Assembly (NCBI GenBank): GCA_902518895.1
Contig: CABYHL010000002.1
Span: forward strand, 8,680 to 72,679
Source of the DNA: an uncultured Alphaproteobacteria bacterium
GTDB lineage: Bacteria > Pseudomonadota > Alphaproteobacteria > HIMB59 > GCA-002718135
DNA: 64,000 bases
Reading direction: 5' to 3'
Under the pieces are notes generated by a model that saw nothing but the letters and a program-made list of their open reading frames with translations, had not been told where the DNA came from and did not search any database. Position 1 is the first letter of the stretch. Each line of letters begins with the position of its first letter. Both the position numbers and the translations under genes were made by a program. Below are positions 24,285 to 64,000 of this stretch, piece by piece.

Positions 24285-24292
24285 ATTTTATC

Positions 24293-24319: not shown

Positions 24320-24336
24320 TTATATACTATTTATTT

Positions 24337-25635: not shown

Positions 25636-25676
25636 TTATCCTCCTCATTCGTAATTAAAGTATAAAAAAAATGTAT

Positions 25677-25690: not shown

Positions 25691-25747
25691 TAAATCAAAG
25701 ACTATTGATTTATTTTTATGAAATATTAGGATAATTTAAAAATTATT

Positions 25748-26011
25748 ATGAAAAAACAAGATATTTTAATACTATATTTATCAAATTCTAGCTTAGAATC
25801 TAACGTAATTGGGTGGGCAAGACATTATGGCGATAAAAAAAAAATTGGAATGCCAGGTGACAATGATAGCCCACCTTATGAAAAGGGTATTGAAGCAATA
25901 CATGATGGATGGAGATTATTTCAAAGTAGTCAACTGGAACAACATCCAAAAGGTGATGAATATAGAACAGGATATTTAAAATATGAATTTTTTTTTGAGA
26001 AAATAAAATGA
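25748..26011 (+). CDS. Hypothetical 87-aa protein
   Basis: ORF with an ATGA overlap onto the PhyH gene, which implies translational coupling. No family recognised. Confidence 0.45.
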   Translation: MKKQDILILYLSNSSLESNVIGWARHYGDKKKIGMPGDNDSPPYEKGIEAIHDGWRLFQSSQLEQHPKGDEYRTGYLKYEFFFEKIK

Positions 26012-26964: not shown

Positions 26965-26969
26965 TAATA

Positions 26970-27671: not shown

Positions 27672-27685
27672 CTAATTTTAAAAAT

Positions 27686-27699
27686 ACTAGTATACTAGT
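27686..27699. promoter_or_regulatory. Perfect 14-bp palindrome ACTAGTATACTAGT: candidate GntR operator (autoregulatory/divergent)
   Basis: Identical to 25677..25690. It lies 15 bp upstream of the GntR ATG and 61 bp upstream of the divergent hydroxylase gene. Confidence 0.7.
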
Positions 27700-27759
27700 T
27701 TTTGAAAAGGAATTATTTTATTTTGGTATGTTTCATTTTTTTATGTATAATTAATTTAA

Positions 27760-29759: not shown

Positions 29760-29782
29760 ATGACAAAATATTAAAATTTAAA

Positions 29783-30544: not shown

Positions 30545-30565
30545 TATTAAAATTATAAATGAAAA

Positions 30566-50245: not shown

Positions 50246-50250
50246 TTCTT

Positions 50251-51693
50251 TTAAAGCTCTGATTGTTTTCTTGTGATATATAATTGAAAAAAAGTAAATA
50301 TGGCTATTACAATTGCCATCAAAACAGATGCAGCAGCTGCACCTCCATAATTTGGAGATGAACCAGCCGATACAGTAAATGCTTCTTCATAAATATTTTG
50401 CACCATCATAAATGTTTCCTTTCCTGGACCACCACCAGTAAGTAAATAAACTTCATCAAAAATTTGGAAGCTTCTTATTAGACACAAAACTACAACAACA
50501 GTAAATGTAGGCATAAGAAGAGGAAAAGTAATTCTAAAAAAAACTCTTGTAGGTTTTGCTGCATCCATTTCTGCAGCTTCGTAAAGATCCTTTGGAATAG
50601 CCTGTAAACCGGCTAAAATAATTAACATATAAAAACCCATGTGCGACCAACAAAAAACAAATACTAACCAAAAGAATGGCCATCCAGATTTTGGAGTAAC
50701 TAGCCAATTTATTGGACGAAATTTTCCAAAATCAAATACACTATCAAATTGTATTGTAAGTAATAGCAATGATGAAATTAAAGCCAAAAAAATAGTAATT
50801 AAATAACTGAAGCTATTTTCATTAATTATTAAATATACATAAATGAAGGTAAAAAATAACCCAAAGTAAATATTATAGTGAGATAAGCTTTCACTGACTA
50901 AATATATTGGATTGGACCAAATAAATATTAAAAAAAATACAGCAGCAAAAACAAAGGACCAAGATACAGATATTTGTTTTTTTGGTTTTATTAATTTTTG
51001 AAGAATAAAAATTAAAACTATACCTATTATGACCGTAAGAATAATATCAAAACCAGCTTGACCAGCGATTAAATTTATTCCTTTAATAGAGGACCCAACT
51101 ACATCGTTCAAAACTCCTTTTCTGTGAAGAACCCATGTCCATATATTTGCAATTACTACAGGTGAAAGTAATACAGGATAAAAAAATACGGCTCTCCAAA
51201 ATCCTCTACCAATAAATGATTTATTAAGTATTACTGCTGTTGTAAGAGCTACAATACACATTATTGGGACCTGGAAAAATACAAAAGTAAATGTATTATA
51301 TAGTGAATTCCAAAAATCATAACCAGCATTAGAGCAAGTTGATGGATTGAAAATAGACTCACAATCAAATATATCTAAATAATGCTTCCAACCTACATAG
51401 GGTCTTTTGTACAATAAAATTGAATCTCCACCAGTTAATGATACCCAAAAATTCAAAATGACTGGTAAAAAAGTAAATAGACCGAAAATTAGAAGATTTG
51501 GAAGTAAAAGAGCATATGGCACTCCAGATTTACCCCATATTTTTTGAGACAACTCAACTGGCAAGCCTATTAGATCAACAAAGAACTGAGGTATTTGATA
51601 AATCTTGTACTGTCTTTCTTTAAAAAGCCAAAAACCTCCTAAAAAAATCCAAGCTAATAAAATTCCTATTAAAAAACTTCCAGTATAATTCAT
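50251..51693 (-). CDS. Carbohydrate ABC transporter permease (CUT1), enlarged, extra TM segments
   Basis: EAA loop 'LYEAAEMDAAKPTRVFFRITFPL'. The track start at 51711 is a TTG inside the hairpin; the ATG at 51693 (MNYTGSF) is preferred, giving 480 aa. Confidence 0.8.
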   Translation of the reverse strand: MNYTGSFLIGILLAWIFLGGFWLFKERQYKIYQIPQFFVDLIGLPVELSQKIWGKSGVPYALLLPNLLIFGLFTFLPVILNFWVSLTGGDSILLYKRPYVGWKHYLDIFDCESIFNPSTCSNAGYDFWNSLYNTFTFVFFQVPIMCIVALTTAVILNKSFIGRGFWRAVFFYPVLLSPVVIANIWTWVLHRKGVLNDVVGSSIKGINLIAGQAGFDIILTVIIGIVLIFILQKLIKPKKQISVSWSFVFAAVFFLIFIWSNPIYLVSESLSHYNIYFGLFFTFIYVYLIINENSFSYLITIFLALISSLLLLTIQFDSVFDFGKFRPINWLVTPKSGWPFFWLVFVFCWSHMGFYMLIILAGLQAIPKDLYEAAEMDAAKPTRVFFRITFPLLMPTFTVVVVLCLIRSFQIFDEVYLLTGGGPGKETFMMVQNIYEEAFTVSAGSSPNYGGAAAASVLMAIVIAIFTFFQLYITRKQSEL

Positions 51694-51700
51694 AGGGTAT

Positions 51701-51725
51701 GTAGGCCGCAATAAGTGCGGCCTAC
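51701..51725 (-). promoter_or_regulatory. Intercistronic GC-rich stem-loop between SBP and permease genes
   Basis: Perfect 10-bp inverted repeat GTAGGCCGCA / TGCGGCCTAC with a 5-nt loop, between the SBP stop (51737) and the permease ATG (51693). Confidence 0.7.
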
Positions 51726-51736
51726 CTTAATGGTTT

Positions 51737-53023
51737 TTACTGACCTGTTTTCTCAGCAATTTCAGACTTAATTCTTTCAATTGCTGTATCAAGATCATAT
51801 TCACCGTTCATAACACCACCCAAATATTGGGTTGTAGCATTATAAATTACAAATCCAAATTTACTTCCTTGTAGTTGATATGCTTGAGGAGTTTCTTTTG
51901 CAGCTCTTGCAGCATCTGCAGCAAAAACATTAAGTGCATTAGAAACAGATTCACTAGCACCAGCTTCAGAATAATCTATTCCTTCAGCTTGAATTTGAGC
52001 ATGAGCAGGAATAGCCATTCTGTAAGTATACCATTCTCTAGCTTGTTCATATTCTCCTAGCCAAGCTACAAACTTTGCAGCAGCTTCTGCATTTGGTGAA
52101 TGGTTAAAGGCAACAAATCCTGAACCACCTGGCATAATACCACATCCTGCAGGACCACAAGGAACTGGAACTTTAGTCCATTCAAAACTGTCTCCAACAC
52201 TGTTCATAACATTAGTAACATTCCAAGATCCAGACATATAAAATGGTACGTCTTGATTAAAAAACATTTCGTTACCGTTTGCATATTTAGATCCTGAAAC
52301 AGCTGGCCAAATATCTGCAGGCATTAAACCTTCGGCATGCCAATCAACCATTTTTTGTGCAAATGTTTTAAAACCATCGTCAACAATCATATTACCGTTT
52401 GAGTCAAAATATTTTGCTCCATATGACATAGCCGGTCCAGCCATTCTATGACCAGAACGATCCATAACCATACCAGCATAACTTCCAGTATTTTCCATTA
52501 CCTGCCTTGTAGCATCAGCCCAATCATCCCAAGTTGCACCAGCAGAAGGTACTTCAACTCCAGCTTCTTCAAACATTGATAAATTTACATAAGGGCCTGT
52601 GACAGTCATCTCGTTGTGAAAACCAAATATACCATCAGGTTTTCCAGCTCTGTACCAAGGTAAAACTCCACCGTATTGTTTATTCCATTCTGCAGCATCA
52701 ACATATGGGGTTAAGTCTACATAATAAGGGTTTAAACCTCCAAGATCAGTTATTTTACCAATATCAGGTCCTGAACCTGCTTCTAATTGAACCGGTAGTT
52801 GTTCTCTAATAACATTGTAACCAACTAAATTTATTTCAATATTAACGCTTGGTTCCACTGATTTATATTTTGAAATCAAGTTTTCCATTAGCTCAACTTC
52901 TGGTCCGTCAGCACTCATCATAATAGATAAATTAGTAGAAGAAGCTGCAAATGAAGTTGATAAAATAAACAAACTTGTAATAAATACAGATAGTTTATTT
53001 TTTGTTTTTAAGAAAATTTTCAT
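51737..53023 (-). CDS. Carbohydrate ABC transporter substrate-binding protein (CUT1)
   Basis: The ATG at 53023 (MKIFLKTKNKLSVFITSLFILSTSFA signal peptide) is preceded by GGAGG. The track start at 53053 adds 10 unlikely residues. Confidence 0.85.
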   Translation of the reverse strand: MKIFLKTKNKLSVFITSLFILSTSFAASSTNLSIMMSADGPEVELMENLISKYKSVEPSVNIEINLVGYNVIREQLPVQLEAGSGPDIGKITDLGGLNPYYVDLTPYVDAAEWNKQYGGVLPWYRAGKPDGIFGFHNEMTVTGPYVNLSMFEEAGVEVPSAGATWDDWADATRQVMENTGSYAGMVMDRSGHRMAGPAMSYGAKYFDSNGNMIVDDGFKTFAQKMVDWHAEGLMPADIWPAVSGSKYANGNEMFFNQDVPFYMSGSWNVTNVMNSVGDSFEWTKVPVPCGPAGCGIMPGGSGFVAFNHSPNAEAAAKFVAWLGEYEQAREWYTYRMAIPAHAQIQAEGIDYSEAGASESVSNALNVFAADAARAAKETPQAYQLQGSKFGFVIYNATTQYLGGVMNGEYDLDTAIERIKSEIAEKTGQ

Positions 53024-53114
53024 AATTCCTCCATTAATTATTAAACCATACAATCACTGTATTTCATGTCAACAGTTAGTTAAACTTATAAATTGTTAAA
53101 TATTTGTTATTTTT

Positions 53115-53942
53115 TTATAAAATTTTATTCAGAAAATTATCAACTTTTTTCCTAAATTTTAAGGTTTCTATGTGGCCTGATTTTCTTTCCACACAAAACT
53201 CTAGATTGGCTTCACTTTTATTTTTTCTATAAATTGTTTCAAGTTCATTCTTTGAAATATAAAATGATTTAAAATCAGTAAATTTATCTTTTAAGCCTAC
53301 ACATATTAATTGATTTCTAGGTGCAATAAGACCAGCAATTTTTGCAGTACTAAATTTTTCTAATAAACCTGGTACGGTCATATAATGCCCATGTCCATCA
53401 TGTGTTTTTTTTTTAATCAAATTTCTAAGATCTGCAAAAGAACACAAATGTATTGAAGCTGTTATTCTTCTATCTAAAGCTGCAACCCAATAGGAATGAG
53501 TTGCACCCATAGAAAAACCAAATGTTATTATTTTTTTTTTATTTATAGATTTATGTTCATATAGAAAATTTACCCCTAATAATAATTCTGAAATCATTTT
53601 TCCAAATAAGTTTTTTCCATTCCAACTTAAAGATTTTGATAAACTAGATTCATTTGGTATTTGCCTACTTCCAAAAGTTGGCATTTCAATACATAAAACT
53701 GCTATATTCCTTTTTAAAAAAAAAGAGGCATAATTTGATAAAAGTGCTGATCTGCCATTTAATAATTCATTTCTTCCTATTGAATAGTTACCTCCATGAG
53801 CATGACAATATAAAACTGCTGGAAAAACATTTGTTTGATCTGGTTTTATAAAATAAAAAGGAATTCTTTCTTTTTTATTTTTAATAAATATCCAATCCTC
53901 TAAAACATAATTATTCCAATTTGTCTTTGAGATTAATTTTTT
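53115..53942 (-). pseudogene. Alpha/beta-hydrolase (dienelactone hydrolase/carbohydrate-esterase-like) lacking a canonical start for its N-terminal third
   Basis: The track ORF (53115..53684) starts at an internal Met and contains 'GFSMGA' plus a C-terminal His. I translated the same frame upstream. It stays open to 53942 and encodes the oxyanion-hole region 'PAVLYCHAHGGNY', but contains no ATG, GTG or TTG. Confidence 0.5.
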
Positions 53943-54080: not shown

Positions 54081-55454
54081 ATGATTGGTTATTTAAGTTT
54101 AGGCAGAGATACTTTTGATATTAAGTACGCTAAACAAAAAATTTACAATATATCTAAGATACTTAAAAAACTTGATTACAAAATTTCTGAATTCGATAAA
54201 TTAATTTTATCACAAAATGATGGGGATAAGGCGATTAAGTATTTTAAGAATAAAGAATGTGATAAATATATAGTTATTCAATCTACGTTTACAGATGCCG
54301 AATTTATTCTAAAATTTGCCTTAAAATTTAATAAACCAATACTTTTTATTTCAATCAAGGAACCAAGAAGTGGAAAAAGATTAAGATTAAATTCTATTTG
54401 TGGAGTAAATTTAGCATTACATGCTTTAGGCAAAAATAATAAAAAGGGAGAATTTCTAATATTTGACAATAACTCAAGAACTATTAAAGAAAAAATAAAA
54501 GATTTCGTAGATCGTAAAAGCATTGGCAATTTAAATTATTTAAAAAAAATAACCACTAAAAATAAAAAAAATATTATTCCAAAAATTGAAAAATTAAATT
54601 TAGGATTAGTGGGAGAAAGACCAAATGGTTTTTACACATGTGATTATAATGAGTTAGAAATAAAAAATAGACTTAAAACAAATATTAAAAAAATAAGTCT
54701 AGATAAATTATTTGCAGAATCAAAAAAAATATTTAAGGAAGAGTTAAATCACACAAAAAATAAAATAGGTAATTATACCTCAGGTTTAGAGAAACTTAAC
54801 TCAGTTGAACTAAATAAAAGTCTTTCAATTTTTCATGGTTTACAAAATATAAAGAAGGAAAAGGATATTGATTCTTTTGCAATAAGATGTTGGCCAGAAA
54901 TGTTTACTAAATTTGGATGTGCTGCGTGCGGTCCTATGGCTATGCTTAATGAAAAAAAAATTAGCTCAGCATGTGAAGCTGATGTATTAGGCAGTATTAG
55001 TTGCAGAATTCTAAACCAAATCAACAATAAACCATCATTATTAGTTGATATAGTGGATTTAGATTATAAAAAAAATAATGTTGTTTTTTGGCACTGTGGG
55101 CTTGCACCAATTAGTATGTCAAATAAAAAGAAATCTAAAGCCATTCTTCATTCTAATAGAAAAAAACCACTGTTGTTTAATTTTGCATTTAAAAAAGGAA
55201 AGATAACGATATTTAGAGTTTCAAAATCCCGTAACAAGCTAAAATTTTTTATTTTAAAAGGAAAAGTTTTGGATGAAAAAAATTCTTTTTCTGGAACATC
55301 TGGTGTTGTTTCATTTGGTAAATCTACTACAAGAATTATTGAAGAATTTTTGCTTAGTGGAATGGAACATCATATTGCATTTACTTATGGAGATATATAC
55401 GAAGATCTATTATCATTAGGTAATAAATTAAAAATACCAGTATACACTTTATGA
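54081..55454 (+). CDS. L-fucose/L-arabinose isomerase-family protein
   Basis: 457 aa with 'SACEADVLGS', 'VFWHCG' and 'MEHHIAFTYG' motifs that resemble FucI/AraA catalytic and metal residues. Confidence 0.7.
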   Translation: MIGYLSLGRDTFDIKYAKQKIYNISKILKKLDYKISEFDKLILSQNDGDKAIKYFKNKECDKYIVIQSTFTDAEFILKFALKFNKPILFISIKEPRSGKRLRLNSICGVNLALHALGKNNKKGEFLIFDNNSRTIKEKIKDFVDRKSIGNLNYLKKITTKNKKNIIPKIEKLNLGLVGERPNGFYTCDYNELEIKNRLKTNIKKISLDKLFAESKKIFKEELNHTKNKIGNYTSGLEKLNSVELNKSLSIFHGLQNIKKEKDIDSFAIRCWPEMFTKFGCAACGPMAMLNEKKISSACEADVLGSISCRILNQINNKPSLLVDIVDLDYKKNNVVFWHCGLAPISMSNKKKSKAILHSNRKKPLLFNFAFKKGKITIFRVSKSRNKLKFFILKGKVLDEKNSFSGTSGVVSFGKSTTRIIEEFLLSGMEHHIAFTYGDIYEDLLSLGNKLKIPVYTL

Positions 55455-56542
55455 ATCAAAAAATTAAATATGCAATAATTGGTACTGGGGCAATGGGCAG
55501 AGAGCATATTAGGAACATTGAAATCATTGAAAATGCAGAAGTTGTTGCTTTGTGCGATACATTTGAGGGTTCAATAAAAGCAAGTTATGAATTGGCTAAC
55601 AATAAAGGTATTAAGTGTTTTAATAATATAGATAGTTTGATTAAAGATGATAGTGCTGATGCTTATGTTATTTCTACACCAAACTTCACACATATAGATG
55701 TAATTAAAAAAGTTTTAGTAGCAAATAAACATCTCCTAATAGAAAAACCAATGTGTACAAATGTTGATGACTGTTTTGAACTACAAAAAATTACTAAAAA
55801 TTATAAAAGCACAATTTGGATAGCTATGGAGTACAGATACATGCTCCCTGTAAGTAAAATGACGGAATATATACATACGAAGAAAATTGGTGATCTGAAA
55901 ATGCTAACTATAAAGGAGCATCGTCAGCCTTTTTTAGAAAAAGTAAGAGATTGGAATAGATTTTCCCGAAATACTGGTGGAACGCTTGTTGAAAAATGTT
56001 GTCATTTTTTTGATTTAATGAGACTCATCATTCAAAGTGAACCAACTAAAATATTTGCAAGTGCTGGACAAGATGTAAATCATTTAGAAGAGAGTTATAA
56101 TAATGAAGTACCAGATATTATAGATAATGCATTTGTAATTGTTGATTTTAAAAATGGTGTAAGGAGCACTTTAGATTTATGTATGTTTGCTGAAAATACA
56201 GATTTACAAGAGGAATTTTGTGCTGTTGGAAACTTAGGTAAAATAGAGACTGGAGTGCCATCTAATAAGTCTGGTAAAAATTCTTCTACTTTAAGAATTG
56301 GTATGAGAAATCAAAATAGTCCTATTCTTGAAAATATTACAGTAGATAAAAAAATATTTGATGCTGGTCACCACCATGGATCAACATATTATGAACATTT
56401 AGGTTTTATAAATAGTATAAATAATAAGCTGCCTGCGGAAGTTTCAATAAAAGATGGTCTGTATTCTGTTGCTATGGGCCAAGCAGCTGAGATATCGGCA
56501 AAAGAAGGAAGAGTAGTTGAAATGAGTGAATTTAATCTTTAA
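55451..56542 (+). CDS. Gfo/Idh/MocA-family oxidoreductase
   Basis: 363 aa with 'YAIIGTGAMGREH' and 'LLIEKPMC'. ATGA overlap with the isomerase gene. Confidence 0.8.
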   Translation: MNQKIKYAIIGTGAMGREHIRNIEIIENAEVVALCDTFEGSIKASYELANNKGIKCFNNIDSLIKDDSADAYVISTPNFTHIDVIKKVLVANKHLLIEKPMCTNVDDCFELQKITKNYKSTIWIAMEYRYMLPVSKMTEYIHTKKIGDLKMLTIKEHRQPFLEKVRDWNRFSRNTGGTLVEKCCHFFDLMRLIIQSEPTKIFASAGQDVNHLEESYNNEVPDIIDNAFVIVDFKNGVRSTLDLCMFAENTDLQEEFCAVGNLGKIETGVPSNKSGKNSSTLRIGMRNQNSPILENITVDKKIFDAGHHHGSTYYEHLGFINSINNKLPAEVSIKDGLYSVAMGQAAEISAKEGRVVEMSEFNL

Positions 56543-57467
56543 GGCTTTGAAAAAATTTATTTGTTGTATCAACTATAAAATTACTTACTCTGGTATTTGA
56601 CTCTTCAGTTACTCCTGCTGTATGTGGAGTTAAGATACAATTCATATTTTTAGTGATTTTTTTATAGAATTCTTCGTCAATAGGTTCATTCTCAAAAACA
56701 TCTAACGCAAAACCAGATATGATATTATTTGAGTATGCGTCTAGTAAGTCTCTTTCATTAATTATTCCACCTCTTGAAGAATTAATAATAATAGGTTTTT
56801 TTTTTATTTTGGAGAAAACTTGTTTATTAAACATATATTTAGTTTCTTCACTTAAAGGCACGTGTATTGAAATAATATCTGATAACTTCAAAATCTCATT
56901 GAAAGATACTTTTTTTACATTGAAACTCTCTATTTGTTCAAAAGAAATAAATGGATCGTAAGTAATAAATGAAACATCAAATGAGTTAGCTAGTTTAAAA
57001 ACTTTTTTTGCAATGTAACCAAAACCTATTAAACCTAATGTCTTCCCTTTCAACTCATTTGTGACAATAGTATTCCTTGGCCAATTTCCTTTTCTAGTCT
57101 GATCACTCACAATTAAAGTTTTTTTCAATAATATTAGAGAAGAATTAACCACATATTCAGCAACAGAGTCTGCATTCATACCTGTTGCTGGTTGAACAAA
57201 TATATTATTTTTATTACAGTATTCAGTGTCTATGTTATCAAGACCAACTCCTAGTCTTCCGATATATTTTAAATTAACTGCTTTTTCTAAAATACTTTCA
57301 TCTAGATTTGTTTTATTTCTTACAATTATTCCATCAAAATTATGTATTTCTTTTTCTAAGTAATCTCTATTTTGCCAAATTTCCTCATTATAAATTATAT
57401 TAAAATCTTTATTTAAATTATTTAAAACTTGCTTATCTAAAAATTCAGTAATTAAAATATTTATCAT
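56532..57467 (-). CDS. D-3-phosphoglycerate dehydrogenase-like 2-hydroxyacid dehydrogenase
   Basis: 311 aa with 'LGLIGFGYIAKKV' NAD motif, 'SRGGII' and 'LTPHTAG'. Confidence 0.8.
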   Translation of the reverse strand: MINILITEFLDKQVLNNLNKDFNIIYNEEIWQNRDYLEKEIHNFDGIIVRNKTNLDESILEKAVNLKYIGRLGVGLDNIDTEYCNKNNIFVQPATGMNADSVAEYVVNSSLILLKKTLIVSDQTRKGNWPRNTIVTNELKGKTLGLIGFGYIAKKVFKLANSFDVSFITYDPFISFEQIESFNVKKVSFNEILKLSDIISIHVPLSEETKYMFNKQVFSKIKKKPIIINSSRGGIINERDLLDAYSNNIISGFALDVFENEPIDEEFYKKITKNMNCILTPHTAGVTEESNTRVSNFIVDTTNKFFQSLKD

Positions 57468-58372
57468 TTAATTTTTTTTATCTTTATTTTTTTTAAAAAT
57501 TTATTTACCATATTTTTTTTTGGTATTGAGTATATTCCTCCCTTTTTCATACATTTTAATGTTGCGGTTGCTGCTGCTAACTGAATACTTTGAGAATTTG
57601 ATTTATTTAATGATAGAGCTGTTGCAAAAGCACCATGAAAAACATCTCCTGCACAATTTGTTTCAGTTGTTTTTACCTTTGGAACTTTACAATGATATAA
57701 AGAATTATTTTCAACCCAATATACACCTTTAGATCCCATAGTAACTGCAACAAATTTATTTGTTTCGTTGAATATTTGAAAAAGAGCTTTTTGCATATTG
57801 ATATTTTTTTTATAAGTTTTCAAACCTTCTTCAGAAAATATAGGGTGAGAAGCTTTGTTAACGATTTGAGAAATTTTATTTGAACTTTTAAAATTATCTA
57901 AATCTGCAACACATTTAATATTTTTTTTATTAGTATTAATAGCAATATTAAAAGCCATATCTATCCATCTCATATCTATTGAATAAATATCTTGTTTTCT
58001 AAAATTTAATTTCGGTATTTTCTTATAATCAAGTAGCTTTGGATCATTGTAAGCTGCTAGTAATCTTTCACCCTTTGTATCCTCAATTACAAAGCTTTGC
58101 GAAGACTGACATTTTTTTATAAAAATTGATTTACTAATATTGATAGAAAATTTTTTTAATTCATTTTTTAAAAAGACTGAAGAATCATCATCTCCAAATT
58201 TTCCAATGAATTTTGATTCAGATCCTAAAATTTTTGCAGTAAATGCTGATACTGCTGCTGACCCACCTAATCTTTTATCAATACCTCTAGATAAAACTTT
58301 AATTGGTTTTTTCGGAAATTTATCTATCCTACTTATGTAATCTGTAAATATTGATCCTGCACAAATGATCAT
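57464..58372 (-). CDS. pfkB-family sugar (ketose) kinase
   Basis: 302 aa with 'LGGSAAVSA', 'GKFGDDD' and C-terminal 'NCAGDVFHGAFATAL'. Confidence 0.8.
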   Translation of the reverse strand: MIICAGSIFTDYISRIDKFPKKPIKVLSRGIDKRLGGSAAVSAFTAKILGSESKFIGKFGDDDSSVFLKNELKKFSINISKSIFIKKCQSSQSFVIEDTKGERLLAAYNDPKLLDYKKIPKLNFRKQDIYSIDMRWIDMAFNIAINTNKKNIKCVADLDNFKSSNKISQIVNKASHPIFSEEGLKTYKKNINMQKALFQIFNETNKFVAVTMGSKGVYWVENNSLYHCKVPKVKTTETNCAGDVFHGAFATALSLNKSNSQSIQLAAATATLKCMKKGGIYSIPKKNMVNKFLKKIKIKKIK

Positions 58373-58382
58373 AAAATATTAA

Positions 58383-58952
58383 TTAAAGGTATTTAACTAT
58401 ACCGATAAACTTTCTAAACCTATCTCTTATAGTTATAGGATTGATTGGAATAGGATCAATTTTAACATTCCCAGAATTGATCTTTGAAATTATTACATAT
58501 GAATTATCTTTATCATCAATAGCTTTGTTCAATGCATTTACTGTTTCATCTCCAGAACATTCAACTACATTTTTACAACCAGCGCCTATTGCAACATCTT
58601 TTAAAGAAGTATTTTCATCAGTAAAAGTTCGTTGATCTCCTGTTGATCCATATGATCCATTATCAATTATTAATAAAGTATAATTTGATGGTGCTCTATT
58701 GCCAATTGTTGCTAGTGTATTCATATTCATTAAAACAGATCCATCACCATCTATACTAATAACATTTTTATTTTGAGATAATGACAAACCTAAACCAATA
58801 GAAGAGGACAAGCCCATACTGCCTAACATATAAAAAAAGTTTGGTTGATCGTTAATTTTATATAATTCTTGAGATGGAAGACCTATATTACAAATAACTA
58901 AGTTATCTTTAAGAATATTTTGAATTTTATTTAATAGGTCAAAACGGTTCAT
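58383..58952 (-). CDS. ThDP-dependent 2-oxoacid decarboxylase, beta subunit (ComE/sulfopyruvate decarboxylase-like)
   Basis: 189 aa with ThDP-binding motif 'IDGDGSVLMNMNTLATIG...IIDNGSYGSTG'. Confidence 0.75.
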   Translation of the reverse strand: MNRFDLLNKIQNILKDNLVICNIGLPSQELYKINDQPNFFYMLGSMGLSSSIGLGLSLSQNKNVISIDGDGSVLMNMNTLATIGNRAPSNYTLLIIDNGSYGSTGDQRTFTDENTSLKDVAIGAGCKNVVECSGDETVNALNKAIDDKDNSYVIISKINSGNVKIDPIPINPITIRDRFRKFIGIVKYL

Positions 58953-59449
58953 GTATCATCTTTCATTAAATTGAAATCACACAATATAGCAACTGGAGAC
59001 TCAACAACTTTTGCATGTTTGCTAAATGTTGAAATTTTCTCGAGATCATTATCTGAAGAACAATGCAACATAGGTATTCTTAACGTTTGTAAAATATCTT
59101 CAGTTATTTTAGCCATTCCGCCTTGTGCCCCTACTGGCTCACCTGGTGTACCTCTGTAACTAATTAGAAAAACAACAGGCATTTGATATAATTGTAATAA
59201 AGATACAATTGCATTCACTGAATTTCCAATTCCTGTATTTTGCATCATTATACATGGGAATTTATTTCCTAAATAAGCTCCAGCACAAATACCCATGCCT
59301 TCTTCCTCTCGTGGTACAGCCGAATAATAAACATCCTTATCATTTTCAAGAATATCAATCATATTAGCTAACAACTTACACGGAACACTTAAATAAAAAT
59401 CTACTCCACCTTTTTTTAAATTATCGATGATTTTTTTACTAATTTTCAT
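58949..59449 (-). CDS. ThDP-dependent 2-oxoacid decarboxylase, alpha subunit (ComD/sulfopyruvate decarboxylase-like)
   Basis: 166 aa with a pyrimidine-binding domain 'PREEEGMGICAGAYLGNKFPCIMMQNTGIGNSVNAI'. 4-bp overlap with the beta subunit gene. Confidence 0.75.
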   Translation of the reverse strand: MKISKKIIDNLKKGGVDFYLSVPCKLLANMIDILENDKDVYYSAVPREEEGMGICAGAYLGNKFPCIMMQNTGIGNSVNAIVSLLQLYQMPVVFLISYRGTPGEPVGAQGGMAKITEDILQTLRIPMLHCSSDNDLEKISTFSKHAKVVESPVAILCDFNLMKDDT

Positions 59450-59495
59450 TTATGCGGATGTCTATAGATATAAAATGATTAAACAATAAATTAAT

Positions 59496-60548
59496 TTATT
59501 TAAAATCATTTCTTAATTTTATTTTAGTGTTTGAAGTATATTTTTCACCTTTTTTTAATATAGTTGATGGAAAATTTGGTTGATTAATAGCATCGGGGAA
59601 GATTTGTGTCTCTAAACACATTCCATATTGTAAACCATAATTTCTATCATGTTTTCCATTGTATGAGTCTTTCATCATATTCCCAGTATAAAATTGTATT
59701 CCAGGTTGATCAGTTGAGTATTCAACTCCCATACCAGTAATTTTACTGTAGATGGAAGCTATAGATTTATCAATAGAATGATCTTTGAGAACATAATTGT
59801 GATCGATGCCACCACTTTCTAAAAAAGCATTATTTATTTCAAATGAATTATTAAGATCATATTTTGTATTAACTACATCAAATAGCTTTCCTGTAGGAAT
59901 TGAACCCTCGTCTATTTCACAAATTTGATTAGATGATATTCTGACAACATGATCAGTAATATTTTTGTAATTATCTTTATGGCCATGGAAATTCCAATAG
60001 TTATGATTAGTCATATTAACAATAGTATCTTTATCTGTAGTAGCATTAAAGGAAATTAAAATTTCGTTATTGTTATTAATCTCATAAATAGTTTTACAAT
60101 TTAAGTTGCCTGGATAATTTTCTTCTAAATGTTTAGATTGATAAGTGAGCTCTACTTTTATACTTTCACTTGTTTTTTTAATATCACTTATTTTCCATAT
60201 CTTTTTATTAAAACCTTCTTTCCCTCCATGAAGATGATTTTCAGAATCATTAGAATATAAATTATATTCTATTCCATTCAAAAAAAATTTGCTTTTTCCA
60301 GTACGATTACAAACTCTTCCAATAATAGAATTAAAATATCCATTAGCTTCCAGGCAATCATCTAAATTACCATAACCTAATAAAACATCCTCTGTTTCAG
60401 AAACATTCGAAGAAGTTGGAATACAAACTTCACTCATATAACCACCATAAGTATAAAAACTAAAACTATAATTGTTTGAGTTAATAATATTAACTATGTC
60501 AATATCTAAACCTTTATCATTTTGAAGTTTGGTAATTTTATATTCCAT
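59496..60548 (-). CDS. galM: Aldose 1-epimerase (mutarotase)
   Basis: 350 aa with 'NHLHGGKEGFNKKIW', 'TNHNYWNF' and 'CLETQIFPDA' motifs. Confidence 0.85.
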   Translation of the reverse strand: MEYKITKLQNDKGLDIDIVNIINSNNYSFSFYTYGGYMSEVCIPTSSNVSETEDVLLGYGNLDDCLEANGYFNSIIGRVCNRTGKSKFFLNGIEYNLYSNDSENHLHGGKEGFNKKIWKISDIKKTSESIKVELTYQSKHLEENYPGNLNCKTIYEINNNNEILISFNATTDKDTIVNMTNHNYWNFHGHKDNYKNITDHVVRISSNQICEIDEGSIPTGKLFDVVNTKYDLNNSFEINNAFLESGGIDHNYVLKDHSIDKSIASIYSKITGMGVEYSTDQPGIQFYTGNMMKDSYNGKHDRNYGLQYGMCLETQIFPDAINQPNFPSTILKKGEKYTSNTKIKLRNDFK

Positions 60549-61447
60549 TATGTTTTCCTTAATCTTTGAAAATTATTTTTTCTTTGTTGAAGATAAATGA
60601 TTAATCCACCTAAAACTATGAAAAAAGCGCCAGGGAAGAGTTGATCAACTGGCCATTCTGCAAAAAATATCCAACCTAAAATAAGTGCAAAAAATATCTC
60701 AATATAATCAAATGGCATAATCTTACTAAGTTCTGCTTTTCTAGCACCATATATTAAAAGTAAAGTTCCAGATCCTCCTGCAATCCCCATTACACAAACT
60801 ACTAAGAAATCATTTATACTTTTGAAATTTTCCCACATACCAAAAAATACCACTAACATACATGCAACTATGATTGTTCCTGTTTGACCATACAAGTTGA
60901 TAAGTGGTGAAGGAACATGATCCTCAAAACTTAAGGATGTTACCCTTGCTAAAGAATATCCAAAAGCAGCAAGTATAGGAAGTAACAACATATAATTAAA
61001 GTCTGATGACCAAGGTTGCATAATTAAAACGATACCTACAAAACCAGAAATTACTGCACTCATTTTGTACCAACCAAATTTTTCACCTAATAAAGGAATT
61101 GCAAGAAGGGTAACCATCATGGGCCCAGTGTATTCCATGGTAGCTACTAAAGCAAAAGGTAGGTAGGCATAAGAAGTATAGAGACACAATTGAGCCAATG
61201 CTACAAATACTCCGCGGAATAATCCTAACTTCCATTGTGTTATTTTTATTTGTCTACCATTTCGATGCCAATCATTTGAAAAATATAAAGCAATAACACA
61301 TGGAATCATTCCAAATAAATTTCTAAAAACAGAAAGTTGAGCTGCTGGATATTCGTTTCGTAAAAACTTTATCGCAATCCCCATACAATCCAATAAAAAC
61401 AAACCTGAAAGTGATAATATAACAGCTAAAAATAAATTATTTTTCAT
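60548..61447 (-). CDS. EamA/DMT-family transporter
   Basis: 299 aa, about 10 TM. 1-bp overlap with the mutarotase gene start. Confidence 0.8.
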   Translation of the reverse strand: MKNNLFLAVILSLSGLFLLDCMGIAIKFLRNEYPAAQLSVFRNLFGMIPCVIALYFSNDWHRNGRQIKITQWKLGLFRGVFVALAQLCLYTSYAYLPFALVATMEYTGPMMVTLLAIPLLGEKFGWYKMSAVISGFVGIVLIMQPWSSDFNYMLLLPILAAFGYSLARVTSLSFEDHVPSPLINLYGQTGTIIVACMLVVFFGMWENFKSINDFLVVCVMGIAGGSGTLLLIYGARKAELSKIMPFDYIEIFFALILGWIFFAEWPVDQLFPGAFFIVLGGLIIYLQQRKNNFQRLRKT

Positions 61448-61460: not shown

Positions 61461-62519
61461 TTATTCTAAAATAATTTCTTTTCCTACTTCTTGACTTTTA
61501 TAAATTCCATCTAAAATTTTCATTACTTGTAGAGAGTGTTCAGCCGGAATTGTAACTGGTTGATCGTTTGCAACAAACTCTGCAAACTCGATACATTCTT
61601 TGGCATGAGGTTCAATAGTGTCTTTTAAATTTCCTTCAATTTTTTTAGTTATATGAGTTTGAGAATTAATATCATTTTTTATAATCTCACAATTAGGCCA
61701 ATGCAAACCAGCTTCTCTTCCGTATAACCATACCTGCATATCTTCTATTTTATCTTCTGGCAATTTATGATGAAGCATCCAAGATACTTCAAGCATCAGG
61801 GTTGCACCATTTTTAAACCTAACAAACGCAGCTGCAAAATCTTCAACGTTCATTGCTTCCTTATCGTACTCTCCATTGTAACTAAAAGAATTTGGCTGCT
61901 TTGCTAATTCTGTTTTTGACACACCCGTCACAGAAAGTGGTTCTGGATTGTTCATAAACCAAAGAGTTAAATCTAACACGTGCACCCCTATATCAATACA
62001 AGGCCCTCCTCCTGAATTTTCTTTTTTTAAAAAACCAAGTGAGACTGGTAAAAAATTTCTCCTAAGCATCCAAGAACGTGCATGATATATCGAACCAATT
62101 GATGTGGATTGATCTTTTATTAATTGAGAATCTTTTCTGAATCTAAAGTGTTGAGCACACATTAATTTTTTATTCGTTTGATCTCTTACTTCAATCATTT
62201 TTTTTATTTGTGAGGCATTTGGAGCTAAGGGTTTTTCACATAAAACATCTTTACCTGCTTGCATTGCTTTAATTGCTAAATCACAATGATAGTTATTAGG
62301 CGCACAAATATCTATTACATCTATATCTGGATCATTAATCATGTCTAAGGGATCAAGATATAATTTTTTTATTTGATTTGTATTACCCCAATCTTCGAGA
62401 GTTGATTTGTTTATATCAGAGCCTGCTATTAATTCAGCATGTTCTGACAGGTGCCAACCAGGTACATGTAGCTTTGCAATGCCACCGACGCCAATAATGC
62501 CAACTTTTATTTTACTCAT
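61461..62519 (-). CDS. Gfo/Idh/MocA-family oxidoreductase
   Basis: 352 aa with 'VGIIGVGGIAKLH' and 'VLCEKPLA'. Confidence 0.8.
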   Translation of the reverse strand: MSKIKVGIIGVGGIAKLHVPGWHLSEHAELIAGSDINKSTLEDWGNTNQIKKLYLDPLDMINDPDIDVIDICAPNNYHCDLAIKAMQAGKDVLCEKPLAPNASQIKKMIEVRDQTNKKLMCAQHFRFRKDSQLIKDQSTSIGSIYHARSWMLRRNFLPVSLGFLKKENSGGGPCIDIGVHVLDLTLWFMNNPEPLSVTGVSKTELAKQPNSFSYNGEYDKEAMNVEDFAAAFVRFKNGATLMLEVSWMLHHKLPEDKIEDMQVWLYGREAGLHWPNCEIIKNDINSQTHITKKIEGNLKDTIEPHAKECIEFAEFVANDQPVTIPAEHSLQVMKILDGIYKSQEVGKEIILE

Positions 62520-62535: not shown

Positions 62536-63525
62536 TTAGATATTTATCCATTTTTTTTCTTTTTCTGATTGGTAAATTGATTCCATTATACTACTTCTCA
62601 ATGCTGCTTCTGAAGGAGTAACTAGGTTTTTAGTATTGTTATCAATTAATGAATTGAGAAACAAATCAAATGCATGAGGCAATGTTTCTGGTAAATTTTC
62701 TTCTATTCTTTCTATTTTTTTACCTTCCTTATTTTCGTTTATAATTAATTGCTCATTCGTTGTTCTTGCGTGAGCTTTCGTTCCACTTACAAAAATAGTA
62801 TAAGGCTGAGCTACATCTATCCATCCCGCAGCAATACTAGCTATCAACCCGCTTTTAAATTTTATTAAAGCTTCTCCACTTTCTTCACAATCTGGATATT
62901 GATTATATACTTTTGTAAAGGTTGCGCTCACTGACTCAACATCAGAAAAAAACCATAAAAGAAGATCTAAAACATGTGTTCCTAAATCACCAAAAGCTCC
63001 AACGCCTGCAACCTTAGGATCTGTCATCCATTGATAGTTTTTGAAAATATCCCTCATAAGACCATCGTGACAATTAATGAGTCGAATTCTTGAAATTTCG
63101 CCAAAATAATTCGCAGCAATTAATTCTTTAAGTTTTATGTAAACAGGATTGCTTCTCATGAAATATCCAGTTTGAAAAATAATATTTGAAGACTCAATAA
63201 GATTTGCCATTTCAAAAGAATCTTTTTTTCCTATCCCCAAAGGTTTTTCTATAAAACAGTTTTTTTTATTCTCGGTAATCTGTTTAACTAATTCATAGTG
63301 CAAATTAGTTTCTGAACACACAATAACACCATCTAAATTAGGTTCTTTCAATAAATCAATATAGTTATCATAATTTTTACATTTCAGTTTTTCTGAGTAA
63401 CTTTTTGACCTGTTCTTGTCTTTGTCCCAAACACCAATACAATTAATTTTAATGTTTGTAATTACCTTAGAAATAAAATTTGGTGTATGAATATGAGAGG
63501 TTCCAATAAATGCTATATTTTTCAT
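62536..63525 (-). CDS. Gfo/Idh/MocA-family oxidoreductase
   Basis: 329 aa with 'IAFIGTSHIH' and 'CFIEKPLG'. Confidence 0.8.
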   Translation of the reverse strand: MKNIAFIGTSHIHTPNFISKVITNIKINCIGVWDKDKNRSKSYSEKLKCKNYDNYIDLLKEPNLDGVIVCSETNLHYELVKQITENKKNCFIEKPLGIGKKDSFEMANLIESSNIIFQTGYFMRSNPVYIKLKELIAANYFGEISRIRLINCHDGLMRDIFKNYQWMTDPKVAGVGAFGDLGTHVLDLLLWFFSDVESVSATFTKVYNQYPDCEESGEALIKFKSGLIASIAAGWIDVAQPYTIFVSGTKAHARTTNEQLIINENKEGKKIERIEENLPETLPHAFDLFLNSLIDNNTKNLVTPSEAALRSSIMESIYQSEKEKKWINI

Positions 63526-63543: not shown

Positions 63544-64000
63544 TTATAGAGCACAACACTGATCGACCCAGTGACCTGGTTCAACTTCAATAAGGCCCAT
63601 TTTTATTTCTCCACCTTTGCAATCTACTCCAGGATTAGGACATCTGGTTCTAAACACACAACCTGGAGGTGGATTTAATGCACTAGGAATTTCTCCCTTT
63701 AGTTCTATAGCTTCAGATCTTTTCTCTGGATCAATTGATGGAATAGAAGATAATAGTGCCTTTGTGTAAGAATGTTTTGGATTCTTAAATAATTCTCTTG
63801 AGGGTCCCATTTCAACTATGTGCCCCAAATACATAACTGCAACAACATCACATACATGAGCTACTACACTTAAATCATGACTTATGAATAAATAAGTTAA
63901 GTTAAGCTCGGTTTGAAGTTGTTTTAAAAGATTTAATATATCTGCTTGTATTGATACATCTAAAGCAGCAACACTTTCGTCTGCTACTATAAATTTTGGA
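63544..64000 (-). CDS. Opp/Dpp-type ABC transporter ATP-binding protein (C-terminal part; 5' end beyond window)
   Basis: The track ORF starts at an internal Met. The frame stays open to the window edge and reads 'LTYLFISHDLSVVAHVCDVVAVMYLGHIVE', with an OppF-type C-terminal Cys-rich tail 'PPGCVFRTRCP'. Confidence 0.8.
   Translation of the reverse strand, partial: PKFIVADESVAALDVSIQADILNLLKQLQTELNLTYLFISHDLSVVAHVCDVVAVMYLGHIVEMGPSRELFKNPKHSYTKALLSSIPSIDPEKRSEAIELKGEIPSALNPPPGCVFRTRCPNPGVDCKGGEIKMGLIEVEPGHWVDQCCAL

Follow-up and report, generated by a model that had tools for sequence, protein, structure and literature searches.

A candidate sulfoquinovose utilisation cluster with a two-subunit ComDE-type decarboxylase in a HIMB59-order bacterium

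The window, i.e., the whole 64-kb stretch of DNA analyzed here, contains a compact gene cluster (Table 1) that most likely enables a bacterium of the HIMB59/AEGEAN-169 group to release sulfoquinovose (SQ) and to break it down to a two-carbon sulfonate. With a probability of about 0.6, the cluster serves SQ utilisation via a hybrid sulfo-EMP route that is extended from sulfolactate through sulfopyruvate to sulfoacetaldehyde. SQ is a sulfosugar from plants and algae, and the HIMB59/AEGEAN-169 group comprises abundant open-ocean bacteria with small genomes. The window matches SAGs classified as o__HIMB59; f__GCA-002718135; g__AG-337-I02 (GTDB) at 94-99%. The evidence favors the main idea of a preceding sequence-only reading, which had combined the logic of the sulfo-EMP pathway with a branch to sulfoacetaldehyde formed by a 2-hydroxyacid dehydrogenase and ComDE. 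All open reading frames were recovered with the positions and strands given there, and Pfam confirmed each family assignment within the cluster. The genes are densely packed, with 4-bp overlaps between those for the isomerase and SqgA, for ComD and ComE and for the pfkB kinase and the dehydrogenase.

Table 1 Features of the proposed sulfoquinovose cluster and its surroundings
Feature	Position in window	Strand	Basis
Ldh_2 gene	39463-40512		Family match
CUT1-type ABC importer (SBP, two permeases, MalK-type ATPase)	48087-53053	-	Family matches
189-aa ORF without family match	53115-53684	-	ORF call
Putative SftI/SqvD-type isomerase	54081-55454	+	NCBIfam NF048012, Pfam Fucose_iso_C, fold
Gfo/Idh/MocA protein, GH188-type sulfoquinovosidase (SqgA homologue)	55451-56542	+	PDB matches, active-site residues
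PGDH-like D-2-hydroxyacid dehydrogenase	56532-57467	-	Pfam 2-Hacid_dh_C
Putative YihV-type pfkB kinase	57464-58372	-	PDB match 7AG6
ThDP-binding beta (ComE-type) subunit, 189 aa	58383-58952	-	TIGR03846
Pyrimidine-binding alpha (ComD-type) subunit, 166 aa	58949-59449	-	TIGR03845
GalM-type aldose 1-epimerase	59496-60548	-	Pfam Aldose_epim
EamA-family transporter	60548-61447	-	Pfam EamA
Gfo/Idh/MocA oxidoreductases, two genes	61461-62519 and 62536-63525	-	Pfam

Proposed release, isomerization and phosphorylation of the sugar

The sequence-only reading had noted that no sulfoquinovosidase was visible, a gap that is filled by the SqgA homologue. Its best PDB matches are FlSqgA (8QC2, 349 bits) and ArSqgA (8QC3, 339 bits), while the best unrelated Gfo/Idh/MocA structure reaches only 76 bits. 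The equivalents of the catalytic residues K107, Y136, E189, H193 and H321 of ArSqgA are all retained, as is the entire sulfonate-binding triad R166/L170/K172. Judged by homology and this complete active site, the protein is a homologue of the GH188 NAD+-dependent sulfoquinovosidases, and it would release SQ from SQ glycosides such as sulfoquinovosyl glycerol in an NAD+-dependent manner. Its identity of 46% to each of two characterised SqgA enzymes is below the thresholds of roughly 53-54% used for isofunctional grouping in the literature and thus counts against the sulfoquinovose reading. The dN/dS ratio for the gene is 0.10-0.14.

The sole curated family match for the isomerase in an NCBIfam scan was SftI/SqvD. 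The respective model (NF048012, SftI sulfoquinovose isomerase) covers the protein over its full length with 320 bits against an equivalog cut-off of 700, and Pfam Fucose_iso_C matches with 35.6 bits. An AlphaFold model (pLDDT 83, pTM 0.87) has the AraA/FucI fold, and L-arabinose, D-arabinose or L-fucose isomerases account for all of its top 41 fold matches in the PDB. From this homology we infer a sulfoquinovose-sulfofructose isomerase that would convert SQ to sulfofructose. The evidence favors the role in a sulfo-EMP pathway that had originally been proposed for the protein, but the type is SftI/SqvD (PF02952) rather than YihS. For this reason, the pathway would be a hybrid that draws on the enzymes of both sulfo-EMP1 and sulfo-EMP2.

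The kinase had been likened to YihV, and indeed its closest structure is the E. coli sulfofructose kinase YihV (7AG6, 156 bits), compared with 98 bits for an uncharacterised sugar kinase (2RBC) and 62 bits for the best ribokinase. The catalytic Asp244 of the GAGD motif is kept, as are two of the three residues of the YihV K-R-N sulfonate triad (K27 and R138), the third, N109, being replaced by alanine. The protein is homologous to YihV and probably acts as a sulfofructose kinase forming sulfofructose-1-phosphate; its gene exhibits a dN/dS ratio of 0.05-0.06. The aldose 1-epimerase (Pfam Aldose_epim, 234 bits) had been likened to YihR. The YihR-type model NF011719 yields just 25.6 bits, and the protein is GalM-like instead, with human galactose mutarotase (1SNZ, 202 bits) as its closest structure. 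The gene resides beside that for ComD in the related loci L001, L004, L005-L007 and L013 and is missing in L008. We propose that the enzyme is a sulfoquinovose mutarotase, which would equilibrate the SQ anomers.

The split ThDP enzyme and its dehydrogenase neighbor

The ComD-type subunit scores 160.7 bits with TIGR03845, above the cut-off of 148, and the ComE-type subunit 221.4 bits with TIGR03846, a mere 0.1 bit short of the cut-off of 221.5. On the basis of these scores, the split ThDP enzyme is a member of the sulfopyruvate decarboxylase (ComDE) family and would decarboxylate sulfopyruvate to sulfoacetaldehyde. The motifs previously listed for the alpha subunit are present (REEEG, AGAY and MQN.G.GN, the latter as MQNTGIGN), while the 'NN' listed for the beta subunit is not, its ThDP motif reading GDGS-X25-DN. 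In the ComE-type gene, dN/dS is as low as 0.05-0.06.

The adjacent PGDH-like dehydrogenase (Pfam 2-Hacid_dh_C, 167 bits) may provide sulfopyruvate by oxidizing sulfolactate. Short phosphoglycerate dehydrogenases are its nearest structures (1WWK, 181 bits), and the motifs carrying the catalytic Arg, Glu and His residues read SSRGG, DVFENEP and TPHTAG. We know of no sulfolactate dehydrogenase in the phosphoglycerate-dehydrogenase-like family. In all related loci, the gene is next to that for the isomerase or to those for ComDE, and this also applies to loci without ComDE. A further dehydrogenase gene, Ldh_2, had been pointed out as a ComC-family member. The gene is real; it lies in a hexuronate-type neighborhood and scores equally well as a ureidoglycolate dehydrogenase.

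Conservation, transport and missing steps

The core gene order, isomerase-SqgA on one strand and dehydrogenase-pfkB-ComE-ComD on the other, recurs in loci whose isomerases are 53-59% identical to that of the window, and the arrangement is therefore not a chance juxtaposition. This core is syntenic across genomes of the order HIMB59 and under purifying selection: in the lineage that lacks the aldolase, every gene of the cluster has a dN/dS ratio within 0.04-0.27. More distant loci (39% isomerase identity) unite SqgA, kinase, isomerase and the dehydrogenase found here with an aldolase of the LacD/DeoC type, and one of these loci additionally carries an aldehyde dehydrogenase.

The genes for the EamA transporter and the two distal Gfo/Idh/MocA proteins as well as the neighboring Opp ATPase are lineage-specific and lie outside the core. 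The EamA gene, which may encode an exporter for a sulfonate end product, is present in L005-L008, whereas L004 has a MATE transporter in its place and L001 and L013 have an ABC system. The distal Gfo/Idh/MocA pair is missing from L001, L004 and L008, and, at only 19-24% identity to the SqgA-like protein, its members are not SqgA paralogues. The reading frame running off the end of the window encodes the C-terminus of an Opp/Dpp-type ATPase, the stop codon of which (63544-63546) is 18 bp from the next gene start, as had been reported. The CUT1-type ABC system is divergent from the isomerase operon, and this adjacency is kept in L001, L004, L005, L008, L013 and L095. Its SBP is not close to any solved binding protein, so that position identifies the system as a candidate importer of sulfoquinovosyl glycerol, another SQ glycoside or free SQ.

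Cleavage of sulfofructose-1-phosphate into DHAP and sulfolactaldehyde would require an aldolase, a homologue of which is encoded nowhere in the 64-kb window. The earlier statement that there is no aldolase holds for the window but not for its relatives, as only some lineages lack it. A DeoC/LacD-type aldolase gene lies directly upstream of the isomerase gene in L004 and L095, in the latter split across three frames, perhaps through decay or an assembly error, and a remnant of 54 residues persists in L001. In the window, the aldolase slot is occupied by the 189-aa ORF, which matches no Pfam or NCBIfam family, is confined to the window-type loci L005 and L006 and shows dN/dS values of 0.17-0.19. 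As related lineages encode the aldolase beside the isomerase and the window does not, another part of the genome would have to provide it here. The scanned window ORFs likewise included no aldehyde dehydrogenase, SLA reductase, Xsc or SuyAB. Sulfolactaldehyde would then be oxidized to sulfolactate, a step for which the cluster holds no gene, and sulfoacetaldehyde could either be converted to acetyl-CoA and sulfite by Xsc/Pta or be reduced and exported.

Alternative readings and known pathways

In principle, the operon could combine two separate functions: SqgA, isomerase, kinase and mutarotase for SQ, and the dehydrogenase with ComDE for imported C3 sulfonates (sulfolactate or DHPS products) that stem from other organisms rather than from SQ carbon. 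This is unlikely, albeit the most serious competitor. It would agree with the lack of an aldolase and a sulfolactaldehyde dehydrogenase in the window, i.e., the link between SQ and sulfolactate, and with reports of comDE as an expressed C3-sulfonate gene in the marine Alphaproteobacteria SAR116 and Planktomarina (bioRxiv 2024.12.10.627767). Furthermore, ComDE and the dehydrogenase occur in L012 with neither isomerase nor kinase in view, though this contig begins at ComD and both genes could lie upstream. Against a division of labor speaks that the kinase gene sits between those for ComE and the dehydrogenase, overlapping the latter, in an order kept across lineages, that the dehydrogenase accompanies isomerase and aldolase where ComDE is missing, and that the core has no dedicated C3-sulfonate transporter.

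It is less probable still that the substrate is a non-sulfonated sugar glycoside and that the ThDP enzyme acts on another 2-oxo acid, e.g., hydroxypyruvate or 3-phosphohydroxypyruvate formed by the PGDH-like enzyme. The similarity of the dehydrogenase to phosphoglycerate dehydrogenases, the GalM-like mutarotase, the isomerase score below the SftI cut-off and an island otherwise rich in ordinary sugar genes (fucose, hexuronates) would fit this explanation. The complete sulfonate triad in SqgA, a kinase for which YihV is by far the nearest of the solved kinases and which retains Lys and Arg of the sulfonate pocket, and ComD and ComE scores above and 0.1 bit under the equivalog cut-offs would not.

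We give very little credence to an aldolase-free route in which the ComDE-like enzyme, or a different enzyme of the cluster, cleaves a C-C bond of sulfofructose or its phosphate in a novel reaction. The aldolase is lost or decayed, and the kinase and the ThDP enzyme are nonetheless the most constrained proteins of the cluster (dN/dS 0.04-0.06). The ThDP enzyme, however, agrees with the models for sulfopyruvate decarboxylase, and between lineages with and without aldolase its beta subunit remains 79-81% and its alpha subunit 81-87% identical, so that no change of function is visible. It would be simpler to invoke a housekeeping fructose-bisphosphate aldolase encoded in another part of the genome, and the L012 cluster does contain a class I FBP aldolase. 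Lastly, the split enzyme is almost certainly not a phosphonopyruvate decarboxylase of phosphonate biosynthesis: the two families are related and the annotation of the nearest solved ComE relative (9IZ3, 87 bits) names a putative phosphonopyruvate decarboxylase of two subunits, but the corresponding model (fused-model cut-off 312.5) yields 132 bits for the beta and 99.6 bits for the alpha subunit, far below the ComE and ComD scores, the constant partners are sulfoquinovose genes and, in agreement with the sequence-only reading, there is no PEP mutase among the window ORFs scanned for families (19.3-63.5 kb) or the genes annotated in syntenic loci.

Published pathways support the preferred reading, SQ utilisation extended to sulfoacetaldehyde. 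Sulfo-EMP1 and sulfo-EMP2 differ in their enzyme sets, and the locus would mix both by pairing a putative YihV-type kinase with a putative SftI/SqvD-type isomerase; such hybrids are on record (PMC10665668). The established route for C3 sulfonates leads from sulfolactate via sulfopyruvate (ComC/SlcD) and sulfoacetaldehyde (ComDE) to Xsc (PMC12330013). Neither the combination of genes nor the group of bacteria described here turned up in the sulfoquinovose literature that could be searched. A single operon pair would fuse a hybrid sulfo-EMP pathway with a second tier in which a C3 sulfonate is converted to a C2 sulfonate.

Layout and conservation of the probable sulfosugar region

The genes at about 48-63.5 kb of the window most probably form a cluster for the utilization of sulfoquinovose (SQ), a prediction from sequence to which we assign a probability of roughly 0.85. 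The sequence-only reading, which had proposed a sulfosugar pathway with a branch through the sulfopyruvate decarboxylase ComDE, is supported, albeit with corrections. All open reading frames named in it were found at the positions and on the strands given there, and the family of each was borne out by Pfam. The partial reading frame at the window end is indeed the C-terminus of an Opp/Dpp-type ATPase, its stop codon lying 18 bp before the next start. The sole slip in observation concerned the ThDP motif of the beta subunit, quoted as ending in NN, which actually reads GDGS-X25-DN. The G+C content of the window is about 29%, and promoter and terminator scans were uninformative in such AT-rich DNA (60 promoter-like sites versus 68 expected).

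Features of the window discussed in the text
Feature	Position	Strand	Basis or content
Fucose-type cluster	19317-35176		GH29 alpha-L-fucosidase, RhaM-type mutarotase, enolase-superfamily dehydratase (MR_MLE_C), aldo-keto reductase, SDR, Amidohydro_2
KDPG/KHG aldolase	19317-19877
KDG kinase/KDPG aldolase	19317-20763
UxuA	38286-39473
Ldh_2	39463-40512	-
Mannitol-dehydrogenase-family gene	40514-41944
402-aa protein	42732-43940	-	no Pfam/NCBIfam match
Operon ended by the 402-aa protein gene	43937-48090
CUT1-type ABC importer	48087-53053	-
189-aa ORF	53115-53684	-	no Pfam/NCBIfam match; window-type SAG loci only
Fucose_iso_C isomerase	54081-55454	+	Pfam
Gfo/Idh/MocA, SqgA homologue	55451-56542	+	Pfam, PDB matches
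2-Hacid_dh	56532-57467	-	Pfam
pfkB kinase	57464-58372	-	Pfam
TPP_enzyme_C subunit (beta), 189 aa	58383-58952	-	Pfam
TPP_enzyme_N subunit (alpha), 166 aa	58949-59449	-	Pfam
Aldose 1-epimerase	59496-60548	-	Pfam
EamA	60548-61447	-	Pfam
Gfo/Idh/MocA, second	61461-62519	-	Pfam
Gfo/Idh/MocA, 5'-most of converging array	62536-63525	-	Pfam

Homologues of the isomerase are plentiful: of the 8,000 marine metagenome candidates scored, 1,223 reach E <= 1e-10. In the related marine loci L001-L004, L008 and L013, whose isomerases are 53-59% identical to that of the window, the same core is kept, consisting of a divergent ABC importer, the isomerase-SqgA pair and the converging genes for the 2-hydroxyacid dehydrogenase, the pfkB kinase, ComE and ComD. 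Conservation does not extend to the EamA gene, the two distal Gfo/Idh/MocA genes or the Opp neighbour. The more distant loci L009 and L010, whose isomerases are 39% identical to that of the window, bring SqgA, the isomerase and the same dehydrogenase together with a TRAP transporter and a LacD/DeoC-family aldolase; L009 additionally encodes an aldehyde dehydrogenase and a pfkB kinase. In locus L012, ComDE, the dehydrogenase, a Gfo/Idh/MocA gene and an ABC system are linked to a class I FBP aldolase.

Further genes accompany some of these loci. In L009 (5956-7719) and L010 (7116-8879), the gene for a MauG-like di-haem protein separates the TRAP transporter from the kinase or aldolase gene, and in L010 a fold-type II PLP enzyme, PRK08197 'threonine synthase' (12388-13614), follows right after the PGDH-like dehydrogenase; it might hint at a sulfopyruvate-to-cysteate branch. 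In L013, a related SAG, genes for an AptA-type omega-aminotransferase, an alanine dehydrogenase, a Pta-like protein and a PotD-like ABC system border the cluster at one end (1-8405), and a sulfatase comes after sugar ABC genes at the other (17995-19269). Relatives have the APS reductase AprA close to this aminotransferase module.

Predicted release, isomerization and phosphorylation of sulfoquinovose

The gene next to the isomerase had been taken for a generic oxidoreductase, and no sulfoquinovosidase had been seen in the region. This has to be revised, because the encoded protein is a homologue of the NAD+-dependent GH188 sulfoquinovosidase SqgA, as judged by PDB match scores (8QC2, 349 bits; 8QC3, 339 bits; next unrelated Gfo/Idh/MocA structure, 76 bits) and conserved residues. 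The matched structures are those of the Flavobacterium (8QC2/8QC8) and Arthrobacter (8QC3/5/6) enzymes, the founders of family GH188 (PMC10755693). In the HMMER alignment, all catalytic residues of Arthrobacter SqgA (K107, Y136, E189, H193 and H321) are kept, as is the whole sulfonate-binding triad of R166, L170 (backbone) and K172; the stretches holding these residues read EKP, MEYRYM, EHRQPFLEK, LVEKCCHFFD and HHHG. Identity amounts to 46% with both the Arthrobacter and the Flavobacterium enzyme, which is under the thresholds of about 53-54% used in the literature for isofunctional grouping and ocean surveys (PMC12780224, PMC10755693), and to 43% with a third solved homologue, 8ZN9. Algal homologues that are 31-47% identical to RdSqgA are reported to be active (PMC12780224). 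Homology together with the complete residue set leads us to predict that the enzyme releases SQ from its glycosides. The five other Gfo/Idh/MocA genes of the window were rejected as additional sulfoquinovosidases, their products being only 19-24% identical to the SqgA-like protein. The GH31 gene in L008 is a doubtful candidate for a YihQ-type sulfoquinovosidase, its best matches being generic alpha-glucosidases. No match to a solved SQ-glycerol binder was found for the binding protein of the divergent ABC importer.

The only curated family matched by the isomerase is NCBIfam NF048012 (SftI), with 320 bits over the full length versus an equivalog cut-off of 700, while the Pfam Fucose_iso_C domain (PF02952) scores 35.6 bits versus a cut-off of 29.3. 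There is no relative in the PDB at the sequence level, and an identical-sequence look-up found no record of the exact sequence. In a Foldseek search with the AlphaFold model (pLDDT 83, pTM 0.87), the top 41 hits are all L-arabinose, D-arabinose or L-fucose isomerases (E 1e-17 to 4e-11). The protein thus appears to be an SftI/SqvD-type isomerase of the AraA/FucI fold, with a presumptive specificity for SQ. PF02952 isomerases act as SQ isomerases in the sulfo-EMP2, sulfo-TAL and sulfo-TK pathways (PMC10665668).

For the kinase (Pfam PfkB, 124 bits), a likeness to the sulfofructose kinase YihV had been suggested, and the alignment agrees with it. The best structure is E. coli YihV (7AG6, 156 bits), followed by 2RBC (98 bits) and ribokinases (62 bits at most); the catalytic Asp is kept (AGDVF). 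Of the sulfonate triad K27-N109-R138, K27 and R138 are conserved in all HIMB59-type homologues, where N109 is Ala; in the more distant L009 kinase this position is Asn. Since the protein is far closer to YihV than to ribokinases, it is a predicted YihV-type sulfofructose kinase. The same proposal for the mutarotase did not hold: it scores 25.6 bits with the YihR-type model NF011719 (cut-off 251) versus 228-258 bits with GalM models, its best structural match is human galactose mutarotase, and it is hence better described as GalM-like.

Aldol cleavage and the proposed branch to a C2 sulfonate

The phosphonopyruvate decarboxylase model TIGR03297 gives 99.6 bits for the alpha and 132.3 bits for the beta subunit of the ThDP enzyme versus a cut-off of 312.5, and no PEP mutase was found among the window reading frames scanned (those at 19.3-63.5 kb, with inspection by eye of the 19 kb before them) or the annotated genes of the syntenic loci; this alternative is very unlikely. 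The models instead favour the originally proposed ComDE identity: the alpha subunit passes the ComD model TIGR03845 (160.7 bits, cut-off 147.95) and the beta subunit falls 0.1 bit short of the ComE model TIGR03846 (221.4 versus 221.5). The enzyme carries its PYR (TPP_enzyme_N) and PP (TPP_enzyme_C) domains on two separate subunits and has no middle domain. Synonymous divergence of comD and comE from the near-identical genomes of two window-type SAG loci, L005 and L006, is high (dS 0.31-0.48 versus 0.04-0.32, mostly 0.10-0.25, for neighbouring genes), and across distant lineages the two proteins are 79-87% identical versus 50-67% for their neighbours. This combination could reflect strong constraint together with recombination or exchange of the gene pair.

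The adjacent 2-hydroxyacid dehydrogenase is PGDH-like (NCBIfam model, 251 bits; 1WWK, 181 bits), and sulfolactate closely resembles 3-phosphoglycerate. A second candidate for this step, the Ldh_2 gene proposed as a ComC-family enzyme, was rejected. It scores equally with two models, reaching 208 bits with that of L-sulfolactate dehydrogenase (cut-off 500) and 206 bits with that of ureidoglycolate dehydrogenase (cut-off 356), and sits between uxuA and a mannitol-dehydrogenase-family gene; because of these indifferent scores and hexuronate-type neighbours it is not counted with the SQ system. In several other marine loci, Ldh_2 homologues of about 30% identity lie close to the aminotransferase module.

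A gene for a sulfofructose-phosphate aldolase was not found in the 64-kb window by tblastn with the DeoC/LacD-type aldolase of L004 and the class I aldolase of L012 as queries. Such a gene is carried by L004, L009 and L010, and in L004 the end of the PRK12858-family (LacD/DeoC) aldolase gene falls on the start codon of the isomerase. In L095, the 1.36-Mb contig ERZ28548058 contig_15296, the aldolase gene is split across three frames, which could reflect gene decay or an assembly error, and in L001 only a 54-residue remnant is left (E = 6e-5). In the window the slot is occupied by the unrelated 189-aa reading frame. Its GFSMG motif resembles the nucleophile elbow of alpha/beta hydrolases, and its dN/dS of 0.17-0.19 indicates purifying selection. 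No aldehyde dehydrogenase (Aldedh) or beta-hydroxyacid dehydrogenase was detected among the window reading frames scanned, so that YihU and SlaB/GabD have no counterpart there; among the compared loci an Aldedh gene is present in L009 only. Relative to SAG loci of 94% identity, the cluster genes of the aldolase-less lineage have dN/dS values of 0.04-0.06 (kinase and ComDE) and 0.10-0.27 (all others). Purifying selection on all genes of the cluster implies that it is in use. After loss of the dedicated aldolase, the window lineage would need either a replacement aldolase or a different chemistry.

The KDPG/KHG aldolase of the window was rejected as a substitute: with a distance of 35 kb and a KDG-kinase-like pfkB gene as its neighbour, it was judged part of a hexuronate route with UxuA, the mannitol-dehydrogenase-family protein and a protein named glucuronate isomerase as partners. 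The latter, the 402-aa protein, has 60%-identical homologues so named by NCBI and JGI. Its gene is the last of an operon that also contains the divergent ABC importer, a second 2-Hacid_dh gene and three mutually dissimilar Gfo/Idh/MocA genes; the module is kept in L001, L004 and L095, and L008 has a GH31 gene instead. Together with uxuA, the mannitol-dehydrogenase-family gene and the KDG kinase/KDPG aldolase pair, this module may constitute a hexuronate route. The fucose-type region looks like an L-fucose utilization cluster. It also contains a GntR/FCD regulator, a PhyH dioxygenase, two ABC systems, a pfkB kinase and the KDPG/KHG aldolase, as well as two convergent reading frames, of which the one scanned belongs to the fatty-acid-hydroxylase family and the other looks like its paralogue.

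Taken together, the route would start with import of SQ or its glycosides by the divergent ABC system (position and family), release of SQ by the GH188 enzyme (homology and residues) and mutarotation (position and family). SQ would then be isomerized to sulfofructose (homology, fold and model score) and phosphorylated at C1 (homology and residues). Aldol cleavage to DHAP and sulfolactaldehyde and oxidation of the latter to sulfolactate would follow, both through genes absent from the window. Finally, the PGDH-like enzyme would form sulfopyruvate (position and family), which ComDE would decarboxylate to sulfoacetaldehyde (homology and model score). We lean towards this nine-step chain as written, with considerably more reserve than towards the assignment of the region to SQ. 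No xsc gene was found within 10 kb in 80 metagenome loci retrieved with the aminotransferase/alanine dehydrogenase/Pta-like module of L013; a Pta-like gene and EamA were seen there, and one locus contained APS reductase. The aminotransferase of this module matches the AptA omega-aminotransferase model and not a taurine-specific one.

Host organism and comparison with known systems

In a genome scan, isomerases 94-99% identical to that of the window were found in the SAGs AG-893-A21, AG-893-F05, AG-457-D17 and AG-894-P19, which are assigned to o__HIMB59; f__GCA-002718135; g__AG-337-I02, genomospecies 1.A (PMC10734472, supplementary table), with about 29% G+C and estimated genomes of 1.5-1.9 Mb (PMC10734472). 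AG-893-A21 and AG-893-F05 are near-complete, at 92-95%. Genomospecies GCA002718135-1.A is widespread and the richest in saccharide transporters (PMC10734472). Neither that study nor the AEGEAN-169 paper contains a word beginning with 'sulfo'. The estimate for SQ compounds in the ocean is about 1.5 Pg C per year, and Roseobacteraceae and Alteromonadaceae are named as their main marine consumers (PMC12780224, PMC13436972). If the cluster works as proposed, a guild of abundant oligotrophs would join them, and surveys with a 54% identity cut-off to Roseobacter SqgA may have left out the HIMB59 genes. Tentatively, and at less than even odds, we propose that members of one of the most widespread HIMB59/AEGEAN-169 genomospecies are primary consumers of SQ glycosides in the open ocean. 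Within one cell they would proceed beyond the C3 sulfonate that is usually excreted, forming sulfoacetaldehyde and then probably acetyl phosphate and sulfite, by means of a new PGDH-family sulfolactate dehydrogenase and another enzyme in place of the dedicated aldolase.

With the GH188 enzymes of Arthrobacter sp. AK01, Flavobacterium sp. and Roseobacter, the window protein shares the fold family, the catalytic residues and the sulfonate triad. It would likewise act as gateway enzyme, a role known for GH188 enzymes in clusters without a GH31 sulfoquinovosidase (PMC10755693). The host, however, is an oligotroph of the order HIMB59 and belongs neither to Roseobacter nor to the relatives of Alteromonas or the actinobacteria. 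With sulfo-EMP pathways the cluster has in common the logic of mutarotase, SQ isomerase, sulfofructose kinase and, in its relatives, a class I DeoC/LacD-family aldolase, and like the documented hybrid sulfo-EMP1/2 clusters (PMC10665668) it pairs an EMP2-type isomerase (PF02952) with an EMP1-type kinase (PF00294). It differs in that the window has no aldolase, sulfolactaldehyde reductase or dehydrogenase, in that the mutarotase is GalM-like instead of YihR-like, and in the added PGDH-like dehydrogenase and ComDE. The term 'sulfopyruvate' is absent from both 2026 reviews of SQ pathways and from a 2026 SIP study. Neither ComDE in a primary SQ operon, nor a PGDH-family dehydrogenase in this role, nor an SQ-utilizing host of the HIMB59/SAR11 type is described in these three sources or in a 2025 Nature Communications study (PMC12780224), subscription journals lying mostly outside the scope of this search. 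The region would represent a sulfoglycolytic gene set whose pathway runs on to a C2 sulfonate, in a host that is new for it and ecologically important. If true, the proposal adds a variant of sulfoglycolysis that ends in a C2 sulfonate via ComDE and a candidate new family of sulfolactate dehydrogenase, and it poses the puzzle of how sulfofructose phosphate is cleaved after loss of the aldolase gene.

In bacterial sulfolactate degradation, as in Roseovarius nubinhibens, sulfolactate is oxidized to sulfopyruvate by SlcD or ComC, decarboxylated by ComDE to sulfoacetaldehyde and passed on to Xsc. The window resembles this route in that a predicted two-subunit ComDE adjoins a dehydrogenase that could supply its 2-oxo acid and in the predicted product sulfoacetaldehyde. 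In contrast, its dehydrogenase is a D-2-hydroxyacid (PGDH-like) enzyme and neither Ldh_2 (ComC) nor the membrane-bound SlcD, the module is part of an operon predicted to serve primary sulfosugar breakdown and not of one for C3 sulfonates, and Xsc is not adjacent. The published scheme for C3 sulfonates likewise leads from sulfolactate to sulfopyruvate, ComDE and Xsc (PMC12330013), and comDE is known and expressed as a C3-sulfonate gene in marine SAR116 and Planktomarina (bioRxiv 2024.12.10.627767). A sulfofucolytic pathway with SuyAB in Paracoccus is reported to join sulfoglycolysis to desulfonation of the C3 sulfonate (PMC12421959). To that extent the two systems are alike, a single organism taking a sulfosugar beyond an excreted C3 sulfonate; in the window, however, the second stage would be decarboxylation of sulfopyruvate to a C2 sulfonate instead of the sulfolactate sulfolyase reaction.
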